Of a stretch of DNA of 64,000 nt, positions 17,161-25,994 are shown one piece after another. The notes under the pieces are model-generated. The model saw nothing but the letters and a program-made list of their open reading frames with translations. It ran no database searches and was not told where the DNA came from. Position numbers and translations under genes: made by a program. How positions within the stretch are numbered: the stretch's first letter is position 1; every line of letters begins with the position of its first letter. The stretch is from Candidatus Dojkabacteria bacterium (GTDB lineage: Bacteria; Patescibacteriota; Dojkabacteria; B142; JAFGFJ01): the NCBI GenBank assembly GCA_016931155.1, contig JAFGFJ010000006.1:141115-205114 (forward strand), read 5' to 3'.

Positions 17161-18393
17161 ATGTCCACGCCGGATTCTTCGGGAAAAAACCAAAATCCAT
17201 TTGGGACTCCATCAGTCCAGCAAAACGGCACAGATAACTCTTCTGCTTCTGGGAATATTGCTGTTACGAATGCATCATCTGATGAATCAGTATCAACTGT
17301 ATCATCTGTATTACCTGATAAATCAACGTCTCCCGATGTATCTCCAGCTCCAGCTACAGGCGTAGGATCCGATCGAGCAGGTATTGGGGCTCAAGCGCAA
17401 GGAGTAGTTCCGGAAGAGACATCTCGGAGCAGTACGTCTCCGGGCACACCTATAAATGCTGTACCACAAGGTAGTGTATCTTCAAATGGAGTATCCCCAA
17501 CAGGATTATCTCCTGTTGCTGCACCTCCAGACAGTTCATCAGTTGATACTCTGCCGGTTTCTGCTTCTACCCAGACAATTCCAAATACGGTGGGAGGAAT
17601 GACGGACAATCCAATACCACAGTCAAACGGTAATGGAGGACTTCCTCCAATTTCTGATACTCCGCCGGCTGATCTGGGAAATAAAGACGAAAAAGAGGAA
17701 GATGATGAGAAAGATGAGCCTCAAGTTGTTGAGAGAGTTATTATTAAAGAAAAAGGAGGGGGTCTTGGATGTTTCGGTTTAATAAAGCGGATTACGTGTT
17801 TTATTTTATTGATTTTTCTCCTCCTGGTAACAGCTGTTGTTGCTTTAATTATTTTCAAACCTCCATTTCTTACAGAGCCACTAAAAATGTATTTAAACGG
17901 AAATTACAAGCCTGATAAGACATCTGAGGGCATAACCTCTATATCAGTGGAAAGTTATATCGATGAGGTTACAAGTCCAACGAATGGGGAGGTTACTTTT
18001 CAGCTGACTGAAGATCAGCTTACTACTCTGGTCAGGGCTCGACTTGCAGATGGAGCCGATGTGAGGGTCGGCCTTGAGGAAGAGAAAATACAGATATTTG
18101 TTGATGTTGCTGAGCAGGGAGAACCACTGTGGGTCATTGTTGAACTCACCGATACTGAAGATAAACTTGTTTTTTCCAGAATTGGTTTTGGAAAGATCAA
18201 TACACCCGAGTCCCTTCGAGAATTTGTAAAAGAGAGGGCATTTGGTCTTATGGGAACAGTAATTAAGGATCTGGAATTGGGCACAAGTGAACAGCTTATA
18301 AGTAGTTTAGCAGGTGGTGAAATAAGTAGTAGTGTTGTAATTAAGGATGTAAAATTTGCGAAAGATCTAGTTTTGGTCACAGTTGAACTTTGA
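17161..18393 (+). CDS. Ser/Thr/Pro-rich membrane-anchored protein
   Basis: 410 aa. About 170 aa of S/T/P/G low complexity, then an acidic KDEKEEDDEKDE stretch, one TM helix (CFILLIFLLLVTAVVALIIF) and a ~170-aa C-terminal domain. Confidence 0.5.
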   Translation: MSTPDSSGKNQNPFGTPSVQQNGTDNSSASGNIAVTNASSDESVSTVSSVLPDKSTSPDVSPAPATGVGSDRAGIGAQAQGVVPEETSRSSTSPGTPINAVPQGSVSSNGVSPTGLSPVAAPPDSSSVDTLPVSASTQTIPNTVGGMTDNPIPQSNGNGGLPPISDTPPADLGNKDEKEEDDEKDEPQVVERVIIKEKGGGLGCFGLIKRITCFILLIFLLLVTAVVALIIFKPPFLTEPLKMYLNGNYKPDKTSEGITSISVESYIDEVTSPTNGEVTFQLTEDQLTTLVRARLADGADVRVGLEEEKIQIFVDVAEQGEPLWVIVELTDTEDKLVFSRIGFGKINTPESLREFVKERAFGLMGTVIKDLELGTSEQLISSLAGGEISSSVVIKDVKFAKDLVLVTVEL

Positions 18394-19298
18394 TATATCT
18401 AATCCACGGGGACAATTACTTTGAAAGCGGAGAAGAACTTAGGAGTCTGGTTTACGAGTATAATCAGAAATTTTCCGATGCTGAAGTTGAGGTAAAACAT
18501 GGAGATGAGGCTAATACATTAAACGATCTTTTTTCCGGATTAGATACAATTTCTCTTTTTTCTACAAGAAAGCTTTTAGTCGTTAAAAGATTATTTTCAA
18601 ATAAAAAAAAATCTATTTTGTCAGAGACGGCAGATTTTTTGTCTGAGCGGAAAAAAATGACTTTAGTTTTATGGGAAGAAAAATCTGCTGATAAGAGATC
18701 AAAATTATTTAAGCTAATTAGTAAAATTGGAGTAGTCAGGGAATTTGAAATCAGGAAACCAGCAGCTCTGAGAAGCTGGTTTTTGGATCAGGCGGAGAAA
18801 AAGAAAATAGAATTTAAGTCGGGTCTTGCAGATCAGATTATTTTTAGAGTTGGAGAAAATGAGGCAGTTCTTTCCAACGAACTGGATAAATTGAAATTAT
18901 TTCTTGAAGCGGAAGGAAGAAAAGAAATAACGGAAAATGATATTGAGAATCTTGTTGAAAGCAGAGAGGCAAATATCTGGGAATTTATTGATTCGCTTGT
19001 TGAAAGAAATCGCAAAAAGGCTTTATTTCAAATTGAAAAACTAATTCGAGATAAAACTGACTATATTCAAACAGTCGGAATGATTGCCAGGGAGTTAAGA
19101 ATGCTTGCCCTTTCAGACTACAAAGAAAAGCTTGGCCTTCATCCCTTTGTCCTTTCAAAGTTGAAAAAGCATGCCGGAAATTTTACAAAAGAAAAAATTA
19201 AGGAAATGTATAAAAAGCTTGTTGGACTGGATTTTTCCGTGAAACAGGGAAGAATAGATGAGAAACTTGGTCTTAGTTTATATGTTATCAGTGTTTAA
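18390..19298 (+). CDS. holA: DNA polymerase III delta subunit
   Basis: 302 aa. (M)IYLIHGDNYF...LFSTRKLLVVKR fits the HolA N-terminus. The TTG start overlaps the upstream stop by 4 nt. Confidence 0.65.
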   Translation: MIYLIHGDNYFESGEELRSLVYEYNQKFSDAEVEVKHGDEANTLNDLFSGLDTISLFSTRKLLVVKRLFSNKKKSILSETADFLSERKKMTLVLWEEKSADKRSKLFKLISKIGVVREFEIRKPAALRSWFLDQAEKKKIEFKSGLADQIIFRVGENEAVLSNELDKLKLFLEAEGRKEITENDIENLVESREANIWEFIDSLVERNRKKALFQIEKLIRDKTDYIQTVGMIARELRMLALSDYKEKLGLHPFVLSKLKKHAGNFTKEKIKEMYKKLVGLDFSVKQGRIDEKLGLSLYVISV

Positions 19299-19332: not shown

Positions 19333-20580
19333 ATGCTAAAGATTATCTATTTGCATTTGCATAAAACCAATACCCTTTTTCTGAACATCTTATTAGTGTT
19401 TGGGGTAATTTTTTGTTTTACACCAAAGGTGAATGCAGAAGTTTCCGTTGTTTCAAGGGCTGAGAGTAAAATTGATGAAAACCTGACAAAGGAAGATGCA
19501 AACTTTGCCTCTCCGAAAAGTATTCTGCTCGTTCCTTTATTCAGACCGGAAGGAGTAAATGAAAATGATAGTAAGTGGTTTAGATCTCTGTACTATTTTT
19601 ACACTGCGAGGCTTGGTTTTCCTGATATCCCATTTCACTTTGTGGTTGGAGGAAATGGTGATATTTATGAGGGGAATAAGGGTGGAGAGGAGCAAAGTAT
19701 TCTTATTAATGGAGAGGAGCCTGGCTCAATCGTTATCGCTTATCTCGTAAAAGAAGGTGAAAATGGATTTTCTATTAGAGCATATGATTCCATCCGGGAA
19801 ATTTTGCTTGACGTTGCAAATAGAAACGCTATTAAACCAGAAAAGATTAAAATTACTGGAGCAGAAGTTGTTGTTAACCTCAAAAACAAAACAGTTTTTA
19901 TTAGATCGAAAGCTCTTGTTGGGGGAGGATGGAGTAATGGAATGAAAGAGGCTCTTGATTTTGTCGATAAAAACTATAAACCTGTTCCAAAGCTATATTC
20001 CATCAAAATTGTCGAGGCAAAACCTCCTGATGCACCGGTAAATTACCGTGAAACAGGACTTATGACTTTAAAAATAAAAAATACGGGAAAGAATAGTATT
20101 TATCAAGGTGGAGATAGCGAAATAATTGGTCTAAAAAAAGACGGAGAGGATAGTAGATTTTTTGTAAATGGTGTCTGGGCAAGTCCTTCTCAACCGACAA
20201 TAATGAGTGAGGGCAACGTTATCCGCCCTGGTGAAGAAAAAACGTTTATATTTAAGTTGCATGTTCCATTGTATTTTGGAGAGCAACGAGAGTCGTTCAG
20301 CCTGGTAAATAGAAATGGACAAAATTTTGATGGAACGGATTTTGATATTGTTTTGAATGTAAATACCCCAACTGAAAAAGTTGTTGAAATACTTTCCACT
20401 GATACTGGATATCTCAATGTGCGTGAAATAGCCAGTGGAGCAGCAAATGTTATTACAAAGGTTAATCCCGGGCAAAGGTATTTCTTCTTGGAGGATAGCA
20501 ATACCGGGTGGTACAAAATAGATATAGAGGGAGGAAAGAGCGGTTGGGTAGCAAAACAGCATGTTAAGTTTGTGAATTAA
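19333..20580 (+). CDS. secreted protein with C-terminal SH3b domain, N-terminal region weakly Amidase_2-like
   Basis: Signal peptide (LNILLVFGVIFCFTPKVNA). The C-terminal GYLNVREIASGAANVITKVNPGQRYFFLEDSNTGWYKIDIEGGKSGWV is a bacterial SH3 pattern. HFVVGGNGDIYEGN resembles an Amidase_2 motif but the His ligands are not evident. Confidence 0.5.
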   Translation: MLKIIYLHLHKTNTLFLNILLVFGVIFCFTPKVNAEVSVVSRAESKIDENLTKEDANFASPKSILLVPLFRPEGVNENDSKWFRSLYYFYTARLGFPDIPFHFVVGGNGDIYEGNKGGEEQSILINGEEPGSIVIAYLVKEGENGFSIRAYDSIREILLDVANRNAIKPEKIKITGAEVVVNLKNKTVFIRSKALVGGGWSNGMKEALDFVDKNYKPVPKLYSIKIVEAKPPDAPVNYRETGLMTLKIKNTGKNSIYQGGDSEIIGLKKDGEDSRFFVNGVWASPSQPTIMSEGNVIRPGEEKTFIFKLHVPLYFGEQRESFSLVNRNGQNFDGTDFDIVLNVNTPTEKVVEILSTDTGYLNVREIASGAANVITKVNPGQRYFFLEDSNTGWYKIDIEGGKSGWVAKQHVKFVN

Positions 20581-20676
20581 TTACAGTTTGAAGTGTGAGG
20601 GTAAGGAGTGCAATATTTTTAATATTTTTTTAATAACTTTGATTTAGAATTTTATATTATTTTTTATTTAGTCCCT

Positions 20677-21708
20677 ATGGTAAAAACTGACGAAAAGAAG
20701 AATACAAAAGAAAGTAGCATTTCTGAAGGTAAAAAAAAGGCGATTGATATAGCAGTGAGTCAAATTGAGAAGCAGTTTGGACAGGGGTCGATTATGAAGA
20801 TGGGAGCCGGGGTGCAAAAAGACATTGACGTCATTCCGACAGGAGCGCTTTCCCTGGATATTGCTTTAGGAGTAGGGGGAGTACCAAAAGGCAGGATTAT
20901 TGAGATTTATGGTCCGGAGTCTTCGGGCAAAACAACGTTGGCACATCATATTGTCGCTGAGGTACAGGCAAAAGGAGGTGTTGCTGCTTTTATAGACGCT
21001 GAACATGCTCTTGATCCGGCTTATGCGAAAAATATCGGAGTTGATCTTGAAAATCTCTATATATCGCAGCCTGATTATGGAGAACAGGCGTTAGAAATAC
21101 TTGAGACCTTAGTGAGGTCAGGAGCGGTGGATGTAGTTGTTGTTGATTCTGTCGCCGCACTTACTCCAAGGGCTGAAATTGAAGGTGATATGGGAGATTC
21201 ACATATGGGACTCCAGGCACGTCTTATGAGCCAGGCACTCAGGAAAATCACAGCAATTACAAGTAAGACAGGTTCAACCGTTGTTTTTCTTAATCAGATA
21301 AGAATGAAAATAGGAATAATGTTTGGAAATCCTGAAACAACAACTGGGGGTAATGCATTGAAGTTCTATTCTTCTGTAAGAATGGAAATAAGAAGAAAAG
21401 AAAAGCTAACGGAGGGAGATGAAGTAATTGGCAATACAGTTAATGTGAAAGTTGTTAAGAACAAAGTTGCTCCTCCTTTTCGGGAAGCAAGCTTTGACAT
21501 AATTTTTTCGAAAGGAATAGATAAATACAGTAGTCTTCTAGATGCTGCCGTGCAATTTGAGATTATTGAAAGATCGGGGGCATGGTTTAAGTATGGAGAA
21601 AAACAGCTTGCACAGGGAAAAGATGCCACAAAAGAAGCACTTAGAGCAGATAAGAAGTTAGCAAAGGAGATTTTTGATAAGGTCAGGGAGGCAGCAGGGA
21701 TAAAGTAA
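20677..21708 (+). CDS. recA: recombinase RecA
   Basis: 343 aa. Walker [12 protein letters not shown], the [13 protein letters not shown]-terminus and the L2 loop are unmistakable. Confidence 0.95.
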
Positions 21709-21788
21709 AAGGACAAATAGTTGAAAAACTTTGTACTTTCTGGTACAAATTAGCACTGCCGTTCTTTCTACTTTATCAGTCTTTAGCC

Positions 21789-22385
21789 ATGTTTAATGAA
21801 AAGGATATTGTTAAGCACTTGCTGGTCTCGAAAGTAAGGATAAAGGCTCTAAAATATTTTCTATTTCACCCTGATGTTCCTATTCATTTAAGAGGAGCTG
21901 TGAGGGAACTGGGTGAGGAGATCAATGCAGTTAGAAGAGAACTGACAAGGCTCGAAAAAATAAAATTTCTCGATACTGAAAGGCGGGGCAACAGAAAGTA
22001 TTTTTTTACGAACAAGAAGTTCAGTTTTTTTTCCGAATTTTTATCAATTTTTCACAAAACCTATGGGCTTGGTGGTGAAATAATCAGAAATACGGGAAAG
22101 CTTGGTGATGTGCAATTTGCTCTCCTTACAAGTTCGTTCACAAAGGGAATGAGGGTGGGGTCACATGATATTGATCTCGTTCTTGTCGGTCAGGTGAATG
22201 TTGATGCTCTGTCTTCGATCGTTGAGAGGATGGAAAAGCAATTAAGAAAAGAAATAAATTATACTGTTCTAAAAAATAGTGAGTTTCAGTTAAGGAAGAA
22301 AAGAAGAGATGCCTTTATTGTGGATTTGATTGTTGGAAGTAAGATAATGCTTATTGGAGATGATGAGGAATTTATTGCAGCATAG
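21789..22385 (+). CDS. winged-helix (ArsR-like) plus minimal nucleotidyltransferase domain protein
   Basis: 198 aa. The N-terminal wHTH-like region (KALKYFLFHPDVPIHLRGAVRELGEEINAVRRELTRLE) is followed by the NTase motif GSHDIDLVLVG. Confidence 0.55.
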   Translation: MFNEKDIVKHLLVSKVRIKALKYFLFHPDVPIHLRGAVRELGEEINAVRRELTRLEKIKFLDTERRGNRKYFFTNKKFSFFSEFLSIFHKTYGLGGEIIRNTGKLGDVQFALLTSSFTKGMRVGSHDIDLVLVGQVNVDALSSIVERMEKQLRKEINYTVLKNSEFQLRKKRRDAFIVDLIVGSKIMLIGDDEEFIAA

Positions 22386-22387
22386 AT

Positions 22388-22750
22388 ATGGAAACAGGTT
22401 TTGATCCCAATACTAAACAAGCAAGGGTTTGTACTCAGAGAAGATTTTACAGTGATGGGAAAAATATTCATGGAGAATCAGGGTGTGGAAGATGTGGAGC
22501 TTGTTGTGTGGCTCTAGGTGTCCCCTCAATAGGGAAAAAAGCAGGAGACAAATGTGTGCATATGACTATTGAAGAAGGTCTTGCCAGTTGTGCTCTTCAT
22601 GAAGCGGACAAACCTCCTGAATGTAAAGAGTGGGGTTGTTATGGGGAAGGCCTGCCAAACGCCCTCCAGAGAGATGATTTCCTGGATATTGCTATTAAGA
22701 TTGGAACAAGGACGGAGGAGGATATTCAAGGATTGATTTCTTCTTTTTAA
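22388..22750 (+). CDS. YkgJ/UPF0153-like cysteine-cluster protein
   Basis: 120 aa. CGRCGACC is a CxxCxxCC motif, with further Cys residues (CVH, CAL, CKEWGC). The start lies 2 nt after the upstream stop. Confidence 0.5.
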   Translation: METGFDPNTKQARVCTQRRFYSDGKNIHGESGCGRCGACCVALGVPSIGKKAGDKCVHMTIEEGLASCALHEADKPPECKEWGCYGEGLPNALQRDDFLDIAIKIGTRTEEDIQGLISSF

Positions 22751-22868
22751 GAGTATTTACTTGACTGGATTTTGTAGTTTAGTTCTTCTTTCTCCAGGCT
22801 GGGAATTATGTTTATTCTATAGATATCCCTCTTGCTCCACAATTCCTATATAATATTTTCTATATTGA

Positions 22869-23696
22869 TTGATAATGAAGAATCAGTTATTTCCTCTTCA
22901 CCAAAAAGGAAAAAGGTTTAAGGTGTGGATAGAGCAGGCGAAGTTTGATCTTCAGGCCGCGAGGATTAGTTATGAGAATGGTTTTTATGAGTGGACAACT
23001 TTCCAGTCAGTTCAGGCGGTAGAAAAAGCACTGAAGTCGGTGATTGTTTATTCCGGATGGAGACCACCCAAACTCCACAGACTCTCTGTACTTATTGGTT
23101 TGGCAAACCAGGTTAACCCGGAATTTGAAAGGATAAAATTTTTATTTAATGATCTGGAATCGTTTACCTTTATTTCCCGATATCCGTTTGCTCTTCCGGG
23201 GAACTATGCTACTCCTCACGATAGTATTTCAAAAGGCGATGCCGACAAAGCCTACAACCAGGCTGTTGATATAGTTGGGAAGATAGGATCACTTCTTGAG
23301 GTGAGTGTAGTTCCTGAACATTCATTTGAAATTGTTGAGCAATCTCTAACTCTGGAAGAGATTGATGAAAGGATCAGACAGATTGTTGGAGTGATCAAAA
23401 GGGAATTTGATCCTGATAAGATTGTTTTGTTTGGCTCATTTGCTGAAAAGAATAAGAAGAATTCAAGACCATTCAATACTATGGATATTATGGTGATTGC
23501 GAAAACGGACTTGCCTTTTTTTGAGAGAATAAAAAAGGTTAGAGAAGTGACAAAGGGAGGAATACCGACCATTGAGCCTCTGGTTTATACACCTGAGGAA
23601 TTTCAATCATTGAAAGATGAAGAAGGAGAAGGTCTTTTGGAAGAAGCTATTGAGAAGGGAAGGGTTCTATACGAAAGACACAACAATGAATTCTAA
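22869..23696 (+). CDS. HEPN domain (N-terminal) fused to minimal nucleotidyltransferase (C-terminal)
   Basis: 275 aa. HEPN pattern: AKFDLQAA...QAVEKALKSVI...RPPKLHRL (Rx4H)...ISRYP. Then IVLFGSFAEKN...TMDIMVIAKTD, an NTP_transf_2 GS...D motif with the second Asp replaced by Met. Confidence 0.7.
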   Translation: MIMKNQLFPLHQKGKRFKVWIEQAKFDLQAARISYENGFYEWTTFQSVQAVEKALKSVIVYSGWRPPKLHRLSVLIGLANQVNPEFERIKFLFNDLESFTFISRYPFALPGNYATPHDSISKGDADKAYNQAVDIVGKIGSLLEVSVVPEHSFEIVEQSLTLEEIDERIRQIVGVIKREFDPDKIVLFGSFAEKNKKNSRPFNTMDIMVIAKTDLPFFERIKKVREVTKGGIPTIEPLVYTPEEFQSLKDEEGEGLLEEAIEKGRVLYERHNNEF

Positions 23697-24051
23697 TCCT
23701 AGAGCCAAAAAGATATTGTGCTAAGGAGATTCCAATACTTGGGGCTATATCCTTGGGACGACCAAACGTTATGACGTTAAAACAAGATGGACAGGAATAT
23801 TAATTATTTGTCCTACTATTGCTGATGAGAGAGTAGAAGGTATAAAAGAAAAATACCGAGGAGCAGAAGAAAAATCCAGGAAACTAGGTCATCTGTACAA
23901 AGAAATAGCTGATAAACATGGTCTTCCTTTTATCGATCTGGGTAGGCATGTTCTCCCAAGTAAAAAAGATGGTTATCATTTTGACAAAGATACGCATAAG
24001 AAAGTAGCAGAAATATTATTTGGAGTCATTCGGGATTTTTACTCTAAATAA
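23686..24051 (+). pseudogene. SGNH/GDSL hydrolase pseudogene with in-frame TAA and apparent internal truncation
   Basis: ATG at 23686 gives MNSNPRAKKILC, then TAA at 23722, then the same frame continues GDSNTWGYILG...DGYHFDKDTHKKVAEILF to TAA at 24049-24051. ILC[F/Y]GDSNTWG and DGxH are SGNH blocks I and V. The total of ~120 aa is too short for the fold. Confidence 0.6.
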
Positions 24052-24116
24052 AGGCATTGTCCTGAAGCGAAACTTCAAGTTGAAAACTTGGTTAAGCGAA
24101 AGGACAATGCCTTTTA
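24051..24116. terminator. bidirectional terminator hairpin between convergent SGNH pseudogene and rny
   Basis: A 13-bp perfect inverted repeat, AAGGCATTGTCCT (24051-24063) and AGGACAATGCCTT (24101-24113). The 37-nt loop has its own inner stem CAAGTT gaaa AACTTG. TTTT follows on the plus strand. Confidence 0.5.
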
Positions 24117-24118
24117 TC

Positions 24119-25660
24119 TTATTTGGCTTCCTCCTCTATCCTGAATTCTCTTATTGCTGTGATTTTTACAATTCCAGGATAATTTTGAGTTTCTTCAATT
24201 TCTTTTGCTATTTTATGTGCCAGAATCTTTGCTTCTTCGTCATCTGCTACTTTTGGATCAATTAAAACTCTAACTTCACGACCGGCATGTATTGCATATG
24301 CTTCCTTAACTTCTTTGTATTGTTTTGCAATATCTTCCAGTGCCTTAATTCTCTTTATGTAATCTTCGTAATTATCAACTCTTGCACCCGGTCTTGCCCC
24401 TGAGATTGCATCAGCTATTGCAACCAGATGTGCTTCGGTACTTTTTGCCTCGATGTCCCCATGGTGAGCCTCTGCTGCGTTTGCCAGTTTCTCATCTTTA
24501 AAATATTTTCTAATAATGTTACCTGAAATATGGTGATGGGGTTTTCCTTCAATTTCGTGAGTTAAAACTTTTCCTATGTCGTGGAGTAAACAGGCTTTTT
24601 TTGTAAGTTGAACGTCGGCTCCGATCTCTGCAGCAAGTTGTGCTCCTATGTTGACCATTTCAATAGTATGTTTTATAAGGTTTTGCCCGTAGCTGAACCT
24701 GTACTTGAATCTTCCAAGAAGCTTTACAACTTCGAGAGGAAGATCGTTGAATCCGGTTTCATAGGCGATGTATTCTCCGGTTTTTCTAATTTCTTTGACG
24801 ACTTCTTCCTTTGCCTTTTTAATACTTTCCTCGATGGTTCCCGGGTGAATCCTTCCATCTTTTAAGAGTCCTTTTAAAGCTATCGCTGCAACCTCTCTTC
24901 TGATAGGGTCGAATGAGGAAACAGATATTTGGCCAGGAGCTTCATCAACGATAATATCTACCCCTGTCAGCCTTTCAAATGTTCTAATATTCCTTCCTTC
25001 TTTCCCGATAATTTTTCCTTTCTGATCCTCGTTTACTTCAACAGATGTGGTAGTTGTTTCTGCCACATAGTCCGTGGCACTTTTCTGCATTGAATCCACC
25101 AAAATTTCCTTTGCCCTTTCTTCAGCTTCGCTTTCTATTTTATATTCAGCTTCTTTAATTTTCTTTGCAATGTACTCTTTCATATCTTCTTCCAGCTTTT
25201 TTTCCAGCTGTTCTTTTGCTTTTGCCTTGGTAAGCCCTGCTATCTGCTGGAGTTCAGTTTCCGTTTTGTCTCTTAATTTCTTAACATCAATTTTTGCCTG
25301 TTCAATTGCCTTTTCTTTTCTTCCAATTTCGTCAAATCTGTGGTCTATTGAATTTGCTCTTTCTATTATCTTTTTCTCCCTTATGTCCAGTCTTTTTTCA
25401 TTTTCCTCTAAATCCCTGTAAAGACTTTTCACTTTTTCATCTGTTTTTGACTTTACGTCAAGGGCTTCTCTCTGTGCTTCAAGAATAATCTCTTTAGCTC
25501 TTACACTTGCTTTTTCGAGAGCCTCATCTTCAGGAATAATTTTGTTCTCTCTATCTTTAAGTTTTCCAGCAAGATCCTTTCTTAGAAGAAACCCAACGAC
25601 TGAACCTCCAATTCCTACAGTAGAAATGATCGACAAGACAACGATAATTAACGTCTCCAT
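24119..25660 (-). CDS. rny: ribonuclease Y
   Basis: 513 aa. N-terminal TM, coiled coil, KH domain (GKIIGKEGRNIRTFERLTGV) and HD domain (LLHDIGKVLTHEIEG...HH). Confidence 0.9.
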   Translation of the reverse strand: METLIIVVLSIISTVGIGGSVVGFLLRKDLAGKLKDRENKIIPEDEALEKASVRAKEIILEAQREALDVKSKTDEKVKSLYRDLEENEKRLDIREKKIIERANSIDHRFDEIGRKEKAIEQAKIDVKKLRDKTETELQQIAGLTKAKAKEQLEKKLEEDMKEYIAKKIKEAEYKIESEAEERAKEILVDSMQKSATDYVAETTTTSVEVNEDQKGKIIGKEGRNIRTFERLTGVDIIVDEAPGQISVSSFDPIRREVAAIALKGLLKDGRIHPGTIEESIKKAKEEVVKEIRKTGEYIAYETGFNDLPLEVVKLLGRFKYRFSYGQNLIKHTIEMVNIGAQLAAEIGADVQLTKKACLLHDIGKVLTHEIEGKPHHHISGNIIRKYFKDEKLANAAEAHHGDIEAKSTEAHLVAIADAISGARPGARVDNYEDYIKRIKALEDIAKQYKEVKEAYAIHAGREVRVLIDPKVADDEEAKILAHKIAKEIEETQNYPGIVKITAIREFRIEEEAK

Positions 25661-25994
25661 AATCGTAAATTAAATTTAAGATATATCAGCATAGCTGAAG
25701 CAAGGGATGAACCTGGTGAAGAACAAAGGGTATGAAACCCGAATCTCAAGTCTGTTGAAGTATTCAGTCAGTGCTAAATTCCTCTTTTATCAACAGTGTT
25801 CCTGAACGATAAGTGTGCAATTGCCTATGTATCAAGGTTTTCAAAATTATGAGATTGTGATTTTTGCCTTTGGACTTCAAAAATAAATACATCAAAAGTA
25901 AAATTCATTTCTTGCACCTAATAATAAATTCTCATCCTCTTATAGTCAAGGATTTATCTGGAATTTATCTAGAAATACAGTCTTTCTCCGATAT

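Follow-up and report, generated by a model that had tools for sequence, protein, structure and literature searches.

Degenerate relatives of HEPN-nucleotidyltransferase toxin-antitoxin genes beside recA and rny in Dojkabacteria

Introduction

HEPN domains and minimal nucleotidyltransferase (MNT) domains meet in several described toxin-antitoxin (TA) and defense systems, either as products of adjacent genes or on one polypeptide. HEPN-MNT fusions were noted already in 2009 and 2013 (PMC2701414, PMC3710099); fused or domesticated HEPN-nucleotidyltransferase (NT) proteins lose catalytic residues, and domestication has been proposed for other such fusions (PMC3710099). Here, we analyze three neighboring genes, denoted g1, g2, and g3, that are located in a 64,000-nucleotide stretch of a Candidatus Dojkabacteria genome (contig JAFGFJ010000006.1 of assembly GCA_016931155.1, positions 141,115 to 205,114; hereafter, the window, to which all coordinates refer). 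An initial annotation, made from the sequence alone, had proposed that these genes could constitute a self-contained, RNA-targeting defense or TA-like system.

Among the described systems, PDC-M05, a defense system candidate that was found by "guilt-by-embedding" (bioRxiv 10.1101/2024.01.29.577857), pairs a nucleotidyltransferase with a protein that carries a HEPN domain, has a TA-like architecture, and is enriched in Archaea (PMC12988326). In the one heterologous test reported, a cold-seep representative of PDC-M05 made Escherichia coli resistant to at least one phage; the first component of this representative, M05A, was annotated as an ArsR-like helix-turn-helix (HTH) combined with an NT_KNTase_like domain (PMC12881386). 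In FhepTA, where both domains are parts of one protein, the MNT domain blocks HEPN dimerization (PMC13000451). The canonical HEPN motif is located at the end of helix 3; in the AF0298-type HEPN-T proteins and in AbiV, the motif has retained its Arg but not its His, and another conserved His is supplied by an insert between helices 2 and 3 (PMC3710099).

Results

Distinct conserved neighborhoods of g1 and g3

The three genes are on the same strand: g1 at 21789-22385 (+), g2 at 22388-22750 (+), and g3 at 22875-23696 (+). The initially annotated open reading frames (ORFs) of 198, 120, and 275 amino acids (aa) are all there; the first two lengths hold for g1 and g2, whereas the 275-aa frame of g3, which opens at TTG 22869, is probably two codons too long. 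The homologs begin at ATG 22875 (MKNQ or MKNL), and the start that one gene caller picked would leave out the invariant R14; ATG 22875 is therefore most likely the actual start, yielding a protein of 273 aa. Only 2 nt separate g1 (stop codon TAG, 22383-22385) from g2 (ATG 22388), and an AT-rich spacer of 124 nt (22751-22874, GC 0.31) separates the g2 stop at 22750 from the g3 start. Hence, the translational coupling that had been assigned to the last two genes does not apply to them; the tight pair is g1-g2.

A scan of one genome per GTDB species yielded 126 related stretches, 80 of which were kept for neighborhood work, and the synteny calls are based on tblastn searches of these 80 other loci with the proteins of the window. 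The best 52 loci display the Dojkabacteria-type synteny, and each of them encodes the fused g3 protein; 51 Dojkabacteria loci were assessable for the position of g1 and 46 loci for that of rny, the gene for RNase Y. In 29 of the 51 loci, g1 is directly upstream of g3, with a gap of 3 to 176 nt in 28 of these; recA precedes g1 in all of the 29 with enough flanking sequence, and the gene order is holA-SH3-recA-g1-g3-rny. In the other 22 loci, g1 is not upstream of g3. A second conserved order was found in 21 loci (L013, L023, and 19 more): it starts, 1-3.5 kb upstream of g3, with ftsZ, a sortase-like gene of opposite orientation, and the sigma-70 gene rpoD and continues with g3 and rny. One complete genome with the rpoD-g3 arrangement was checked, and there, g1 directly follows recA, about 140 kb away from g3. 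The most stable neighbor of g3 is rny, which is encoded on the opposite strand at most 6 kb downstream of g3 in 34 of the 46 assessable loci, including 11 in which it lies within 250 nt.

No other locus among the 80 searched with tblastn was found to carry g2 between g1 and g3. On a contig of a close relative (P0002), g1 is followed after 93 nt by g3 and then by rny, without g2. In another relative, with a g3 that is 58% identical (L084:4267-5866), two genes, of 299 aa (+) and 216 aa (-), neither matching Pfam or PADLOC profiles, lie between g1 and g3. These two loci indicate that the junction of g1 and g3 accepts insertions, g2 being one of them, and it has the look of a hot spot for them. 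There is no conserved module of three genes here: g1 tracks recA, and g3 tracks rny. With g2 confined to a single locus and the other two genes each tied to a different housekeeping partner, the initial proposal of a self-contained three-gene system is not supported.

Sequence identity ranges from 42% to 64% among the best 120 g3 homologs, a divergence similar to that of rny (47-66%) and g1 (46-61%) across the loci. The complete genomes among the 80 kept loci have one locus each, and pattern-based scans of IMG/VR for g1 and g3 found no relatives. The conserved housekeeping synteny is in line with core genes rather than mobile defense cargo. Percent identities of g3, g1, recA, and rny were also correlated with one another to gauge co-inheritance, but the correlations carried no information and were set aside. 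Many records with the Dojkabacteria-type synteny are titled "uncultured Candidatus Saccharibacteria bacterium" (L007, L010-L012, L017-L019, and others); these labels may be generic.

The HEPN domain of g3

The Pfam search placed a HEPN domain, PF05168, on residues 18-136 of g3 (E = 1.3e-23; 83.8 bits, curated cut-off 22) and after it a Polbeta domain, PF18765, on residues 171-271 (E = 1.7e-6; 28.6 bits, curated cut-off 26.9), in the HEPN-to-NT order that had been annotated initially. The two domains were delimited to residues 14-142 (22914-23300, +) and 160-267 (23352-23675, +), respectively. In the AlphaFold2 (AF2) model (pLDDT 88.7, pTM 0.85), a helical HEPN bundle is connected to an alpha/beta NT fold by a linker of low confidence (residues ~143-159). 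A Foldseek search of the PDB with this model returned single-domain matches only, with no solved structure matching over the full length. The best 120 of 172 homologs, to which all g3 residue counts refer, are 249-290 aa long and 42-64% identical to g3; all are single fused ORFs, and in precomputed Pfam assignments, both domains are called for most of them. In the HEPN half, the family profile matched PDB entries 1wol, 1ufb, 1o3u, and 3o10, the solved HEPN proteins hit being ST0689, TT1696, TM0613, and sacsin; in the C-terminal half, it matched MNT antitoxins.

Fifteen residues of the HEPN half are invariant in the 120 homologs, namely E39, W40, Q44, Q47, E50, K51, K54, G61, P65, H68 (23076-23078), R102 (23178-23180), Y103, P104, F105, and P114, and H115 is kept in 118. 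The initial annotation had read RPPKLH as a canonical Rx4H motif. The string is present as R63-P-P-K-L-H68, but in the AF2 model it falls after helix 2 (residues 38-59) and before the later helices, and R63 is Arg in just 64 of the 120 sequences, the others having N, K, I, H, or T. The position of the canonical Arg is taken by R102, within SRYPF, where TT1696 reads RYPDAH, and H68 would correspond to the alternative His. RPPKLH is thus off the canonical HEPN catalytic position, the very finding that had been named beforehand as telling against the three-gene proposal. None of the 120 sequences has the His of a canonical Rx4-6H motif, positions 106-108 being occupied by L/V/I, L/I/Y, and P.

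H68 and R102, both present in 120 of 120 sequences, fit the description of the AF0298-type proteins and AbiV, as judged by alignments and secondary structure rather than by superposed coordinates. The title of PDB entry 9bj6 calls AbiV an RNase. Considering that g3 appears to keep the alternative-His pattern of AF0298 and AbiV and that AbiV is so named, an RNase function of g3 appears plausible.

The degenerate NT domain of g3

Five profile alignments (with 9xbd, Cmr1-MntA, MntA, HI0073, and an MntA mutant) place the S-T-M-D-I-L stretch of the g3 family on the S-D-I-D-x-x motif, which reads SDIDI in MntA, SDLDL in HI0073, and SDIDF in 9xbd. The first Asp of the DxD signature is replaced by Thr in g3 (T202, 23478-23480) in 119 of the 120 homologs, and the second Asp (D204, 23484-23486) is retained, also in 119. 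The GS...MDIMV string on which the initial annotation relied is present; the replaced residue is, however, the first catalytic Asp and not the second, as had been stated. The domain also keeps G187-S188, with G187 invariant, and E234 is found in 114 of the 120 sequences. Because one of the three metal-binding carboxylates is lost family-wide, ordinary nucleotidyl transfer is disfavored, and two-metal transfer by g3, such as the AMPylation of the HEPN protein in the type VII HepT/MntA systems, appears very unlikely. The strong conservation of the remaining residues suggests that the domain is still in use.

Split relatives of g3 and the origin of the fusion

Relatives of g3 outside Dojkabacteria, with 28-42% identity, were detected in Chloroflexota, Thermoplasmata, Thermodesulfovibrio, Atribacterota, Caldithrix, and Nanoarchaeota, among others. 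In the 17 non-Dojkabacteria loci that were read out, the g3 match falls on separate small ORFs. Four of these loci (L054, L057, L059, and L061) encode a HEPN protein of 132-138 aa, the gene of which overlaps a downstream gene for an MNT protein of 110-119 aa, and three (L056, L058, and L070) have the MNT gene followed by the HEPN gene. The split MNT ORFs keep SD[AILV]DL and the signature IEPLVYTPEEF in 11 of the 11 cases read out.

The best reading of this comparison is that g3 represents a fusion of an overlapping HEPN_T-then-MNT gene pair of the COG2250/COG1708 type, from which it would have inherited the HEPN-to-NT order. The reversed domain order is not unexplored: it copies that of overlapping HEPN-then-MNT pairs, and fusions of this class to MNT had been noted in 2009 and 2013 (PMC2701414, PMC3710099). 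Specific to Dojkabacteria is the combination of fusion and Asp-to-Thr change.

g1, a recA-linked relative of PDC-M05A

The g1 protein combines a winged HTH (wHTH) domain (residues ~1-76) with an NT fold (residues ~100-190), as had been annotated initially. Pfam searches yielded weak wHTH and Polbeta matches only; with the AF2 model (pLDDT 93.3), Foldseek matched the N-terminus to the ArsR/SmtB regulators HlyU, NolR, SqrR, and CadC and the C-terminal domain to MntA (6m6u and 7bxo). The PADLOC profile PDC-M05A (PDLC04368) was matched with E = 2.9e-35, residues 8-195 of g1 aligning with positions 6-195 of the 201-position model.

Among 121 aligned sequences (of 822 database matches), the GS motif is replaced: g1 itself has S115/S116, and position 115 is S, K, G, or R (S in 40, K in 24, and G in 22 of the 121). 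The first Asp (D127) is present in 73 of the 121, and D129 in all of them. A basic patch, RKKRRD (residues 169-174, 22293-22310), is almost invariant. On this evidence, g1 is a PDC-M05A relative with a degenerate transferase site, and it is most likely a DNA-binding regulator.

The NT-like domains of g1 and g3 align weakly with each other in hhalign (low probability, E = 4e-4). In this low-probability alignment, the equivalent positions are basic in g1 (RKKRR) and acidic in g3 (DEEGE, within DEEGEG at residues 247-252, E252 being near-invariant). The opposite charges hint at nucleic acid binding or at a direct association of the two proteins.

In the loci examined, recA is 70-77% identical and directly upstream of g1, and in many of these, the spacer is 6-30 nt long; g1 appears to be co-transcribed with recA. 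In the window, recA spans 20677-21708 (+), as supported by Pfam RecA_N and RecA_C matches on an identical Logan contig. Between recA and g1, at 21721-21749, there is a TTGAAA-N17-TACAAA sequence that overlaps the palindrome TTTGTAC-N6-GTACAAA (21730-21749). Three loci with long recA-g1 spacers (L011, L016, and L021) share TTTAGTACAAT. The palindrome was considered as an operator for g1 and rejected, as it is not conserved and the recA-g1 spacer measures just 6-30 nt in most loci. In a genome with widely separated g1 and g3, the gene after g1 encodes a 122-aa protein with paired CxxCG motifs (L082:6758-7126), which is zinc ribbon-like and has no match in Pfam or PADLOC; as a counterpart of g2, this protein was discarded, the similarity being not significant (E = 0.033).

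g2, a Cys-cluster protein specific to this locus

A word-indexed search of 5.8 billion protein clusters with g2 recovered a sole full match, its own record, NCBI JW796_02290, from a Dojkabacteria metagenome-assembled genome. An exhaustive phmmer search retrieved 150 remote matches of 100-200 aa. All eight Cys of g2 (C33, C36, C39, C40, C56, C68, C79, and C84) are invariant among 32 remote relatives, forming the pattern CxxCxxCC...C...C...RPxxC...C, and 5 of these 32 match PF03692 (best E = 2e-4). The YkgJ-type assignment that had been made initially is thus reasonable, although g2 itself has no Pfam match at E<=1. The composition of g2 is ordinary (GC 0.43, third-position GC 0.28), with no sign of recent transfer. 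The best reading is that g2 is a divergent YkgJ-like (UPF0153-like) Cys-cluster protein, the gene of which appears to have landed in the g1|g3 junction.

Other features of the locus

The window, with a low GC content of 0.37, comes from a genome of Candidatus Dojkabacteria (WS6), a member of the candidate phyla radiation (CPR), and the region is identical to the Logan contig mentioned above. The local gene order is holA (18390-19298), a gene for an SH3 domain protein (19333-20580), recA, g1, g2, g3, a remnant of an SGNH/GDSL hydrolase gene (23686-24053, +), and rny (24119-25660, -), which is convergent with g3. The ATG of the hydrolase remnant overlaps the end of g3, but the remnant is outside the system. 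Its frame reads MNSNPRAKKILC, a stop, and GDSNTWGY...DGYHF..., with an in-frame TAA between KKILC and GDSNTWGY and a shortened middle part; none of the other 80 loci holds a relative. An inverted repeat is located just 3' of the rny stop; its 14-bp arms (24050-24063 and 24101-24114) match perfectly and enclose a loop of 37 nt, and the segment 24042-24126 gives a full-length, sub-threshold match to the Rfam family RF01742, lactis-plasmid RNA (40.2 bits against a gathering score of 70; E = 4.6e-4). The repeat may simply be a bidirectional terminator. A promoter and terminator scan of 20500-25800 gave nothing above the expectation from shuffled sequences.

Discussion

Two probably domesticated genes and an insertion

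We favor, with moderate confidence, the view that this locus combines two independent, vertically inherited Dojkabacteria genes of TA-type descent, g1 and g3, with one gene, g2, that is inserted in this genome only. The observations are explained most economically if g1 and g3 are domesticated derivatives of HEPN-MNT/PDC-M05-type TA genes. Domestication is suggested by the single copy in the kept loci of complete genomes, the housekeeping synteny, the rny-like divergence, the lack of IMG/VR relatives, and the degenerate NT motifs; the degeneracy of these motifs in both proteins also makes the AMPylation mechanism of type VII HepT/MntA unlikely. As far as the ancestry of g1 and g3 is concerned, the defense or TA-like nature that was seen in the locus initially holds; it does not extend to the present setting, which is one of core synteny without a three-gene module.

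Under this scenario, an overlapping HEPN_T-then-MNT pair would have fused to give g3. The HEPN half, with E50, H68, R102, and Y103, would still bind RNA and probably cleave it. By analogy with FhepTA, the pseudo-MNT half could serve as a built-in regulatory or masking domain that acts in cis, holding the HEPN domain off the active dimer; alternatively, it might be involved in nucleotide sensing. The g1 protein would be a DNA-binding regulator expressed together with recA.

Alternative explanations

The principal alternative, which we regard as doubtful, is that g1, acting as a wHTH-NT antitoxin and repressor, and g3, acting as a HEPN RNase toxin, make up a working PDC-M05-like TA or abortive infection pair that has been fixed in Dojkabacteria, with g2 as a passenger. 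The PDC-M05A match of g1 (E = 2.9e-35) is what such a pair predicts, as is the succession of an A-like gene and a HEPN-containing gene with gaps of 3-176 nt in 28 loci; PDC-M05 is itself a combination of a nucleotidyltransferase with a HEPN protein (PMC12988326), a representative of it shielded E. coli from at least one phage (PMC12881386), and the weakly aligned NT-like domains of g1 and g3 carry opposite charges. The second component, however, is where the correspondence breaks down, in that neither g3 nor its HEPN half matches PDC-M05B and a profile comparison with canonical B proteins was null (Prob 2%). AMPylation of a partner by the antitoxin is also unlikely with the GS motif of g1 lost and the first Asp absent in 40% of the family. 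Furthermore, g1 is not upstream of g3 in 22 of the 51 loci and is some 140 kb off in the one genome checked, close relatives have different inserts separating g1 from g3, and both genes reside in core synteny rather than in defense islands, with no relatives in the pattern scans of IMG/VR. Extending the partnership to all three genes, as a single self-contained RNA-targeting defense or TA system, is highly improbable: adjacency on one strand, the 2-nt spacing of g1 and g2, and the fact that all three are genuine protein families speak for it, but the neighborhood data already contradict a three-gene model, with g2 missing from all other loci, even those of the closest relatives (g1-93 nt-g3 in P0002), 124 nt between g2 and g3, and two unrelated genes at the g1|g3 junction of another relative.

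A different kind of alternative is that g3 is catalytically dead in both halves and functions as a structural or nucleotide- or RNA-binding adaptor, with the HEPN domain employed as in sacsin or in the C-terminal domain of KNTase and no nuclease role. HEPN domains fused to MNTs typically lack the RNase residues and are substrate-binding or regulatory (PMC3710099), the sacsin HEPN domain is among the best structural matches of g3, and in g3 the canonical Rx4-6H His is absent from all 120 sequences, as is the first Asp of the NT domain. Yet the invariance or near-invariance of E50, K51, H68, R102, Y103, and H115 goes beyond a purely structural need, and the residues match the alternative-site pattern of AbiV (PMC3710099), a protein called an RNase in the title of 9bj6; we consider a dead g3 unlikely. 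Less likely still is the conversion of a former TA or defense pair into a core module of this whole CPR class, in which the recA-linked wHTH-pseudoNT protein and the rny-linked HEPN-pseudoNT protein would communicate via their paralogous, degenerate NT domains of opposite charge. If such a module exists, a DNA damage or regulatory input would be coupled to RNA cleavage in minimal genomes.

Three points temper the view of two independent domesticated genes that we favor. The g1 gene abuts g3 in 57% of the loci, often at 3-75 nt and in the same order as in PDC-M05, so the pair may still cooperate. Non-canonical catalysis by the NT domain of g3 is possible, given the near-invariant G187, D204, and E234. 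Finally, the distribution across Dojkabacteria is given as a count of loci.

Implications

If g1 and g3 are indeed domesticated as we propose, they provide a clear natural case of TA module domestication, in which a HEPN and an MNT domain were fused, the transferase was disabled, and the fusion was kept under purifying selection beside RNase Y through a class of bacteria with ultra-small genomes. The retention of g3 in such genomes, which shed most dispensable genes, argues that a HEPN protein serves in housekeeping or in stress. The family also lends itself to studying the function of pseudo-nucleotidyltransferase domains. On the practical side, automated defense system callers will flag PDC-M05A here, although the gene sits in core synteny beside recA.

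Comparison with known systems

In the "thermophilic" HEPN_T (COG2250/PF05168)-MNT (COG1708/PF18765) pairs (Makarova 2009, Anantharaman 2013), the domain families are the same as in g3, and the closest relatives of g3 outside Dojkabacteria (31-38% identity) are pairs of this kind, sharing with it the IEPLVYTPEEF signature and the H...RYP pattern. These pairs consist of two small genes, are patchy and mobile, and have an intact hGS...DxD motif, whereas g3 is fused, carries T202, is vertically inherited, and is embedded in housekeeping synteny.

PDC-M05 resembles the Dojkabacteria loci in the full-length M05A match of g1 and in the presence of a HEPN-containing gene next to it in 57% of the loci. 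In canonical PDC-M05 systems, on plasmids of Comamonas, Legionella, and Bradyrhizobium, the A protein is 192-209 aa long, with an intact GS...SDIDL motif and significant Pfam NT matches, and the overlapping or abutting B gene encodes a protein of 127-146 aa that matches the M05B models with E = 1e-55 to 1e-70. PDC-M05B was not matched, even at E<=10, by g2, g3, the HEPN half of g3, or the split HEPN relatives, and hhalign of canonical B proteins against g3 gave the 2% probability noted above. Unlike canonical M05A, g1 lacks the GS motif, and its context is that of recA and rny, in contrast to a plasmid or a defense island.

For g2 alone, the relevant comparison is with YkgJ/UPF0153 (PF03692), which has the same CxxCxxCC cluster followed by C...C...RPxxC...C; g2 is below Pfam detection and, apart from its own record, has no close relative among the 5.8 billion clustered proteins.

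FhepTA of Shewanella, like g3, has the HEPN and MNT domains on one polypeptide, and its MNT domain restrains the HEPN domain in cis (PMC13000451). The two differ in most other respects: FhepTA shows the opposite domain order, contains a DUF86-type HEPN domain with an RX4HXY motif and an active NTase whose AMPylation target is a Tyr, and resides on prophages (PMC13000451), whereas g3 has a PF05168 domain without the canonical His and a degenerate NTase and belongs to the chromosomal core. The combination of a DUF86-type RX4HXY motif with an active MntA is not that of g3, and MntA chains are weak matches of its NT domain (E = 0.02-0.2). For the HEPN half, the closest parallel is with the AF0298-type HEPN-T proteins and AbiV, which have, as g3 does, an Arg at the canonical position, no His at +4 to +6, and a His between helices 2 and 3 (H68 in g3). 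These proteins stand alone, AbiV being involved in phage abortive infection, whereas in g3, a HEPN domain that appears to be of this type is fused to a pseudo-MNT domain.

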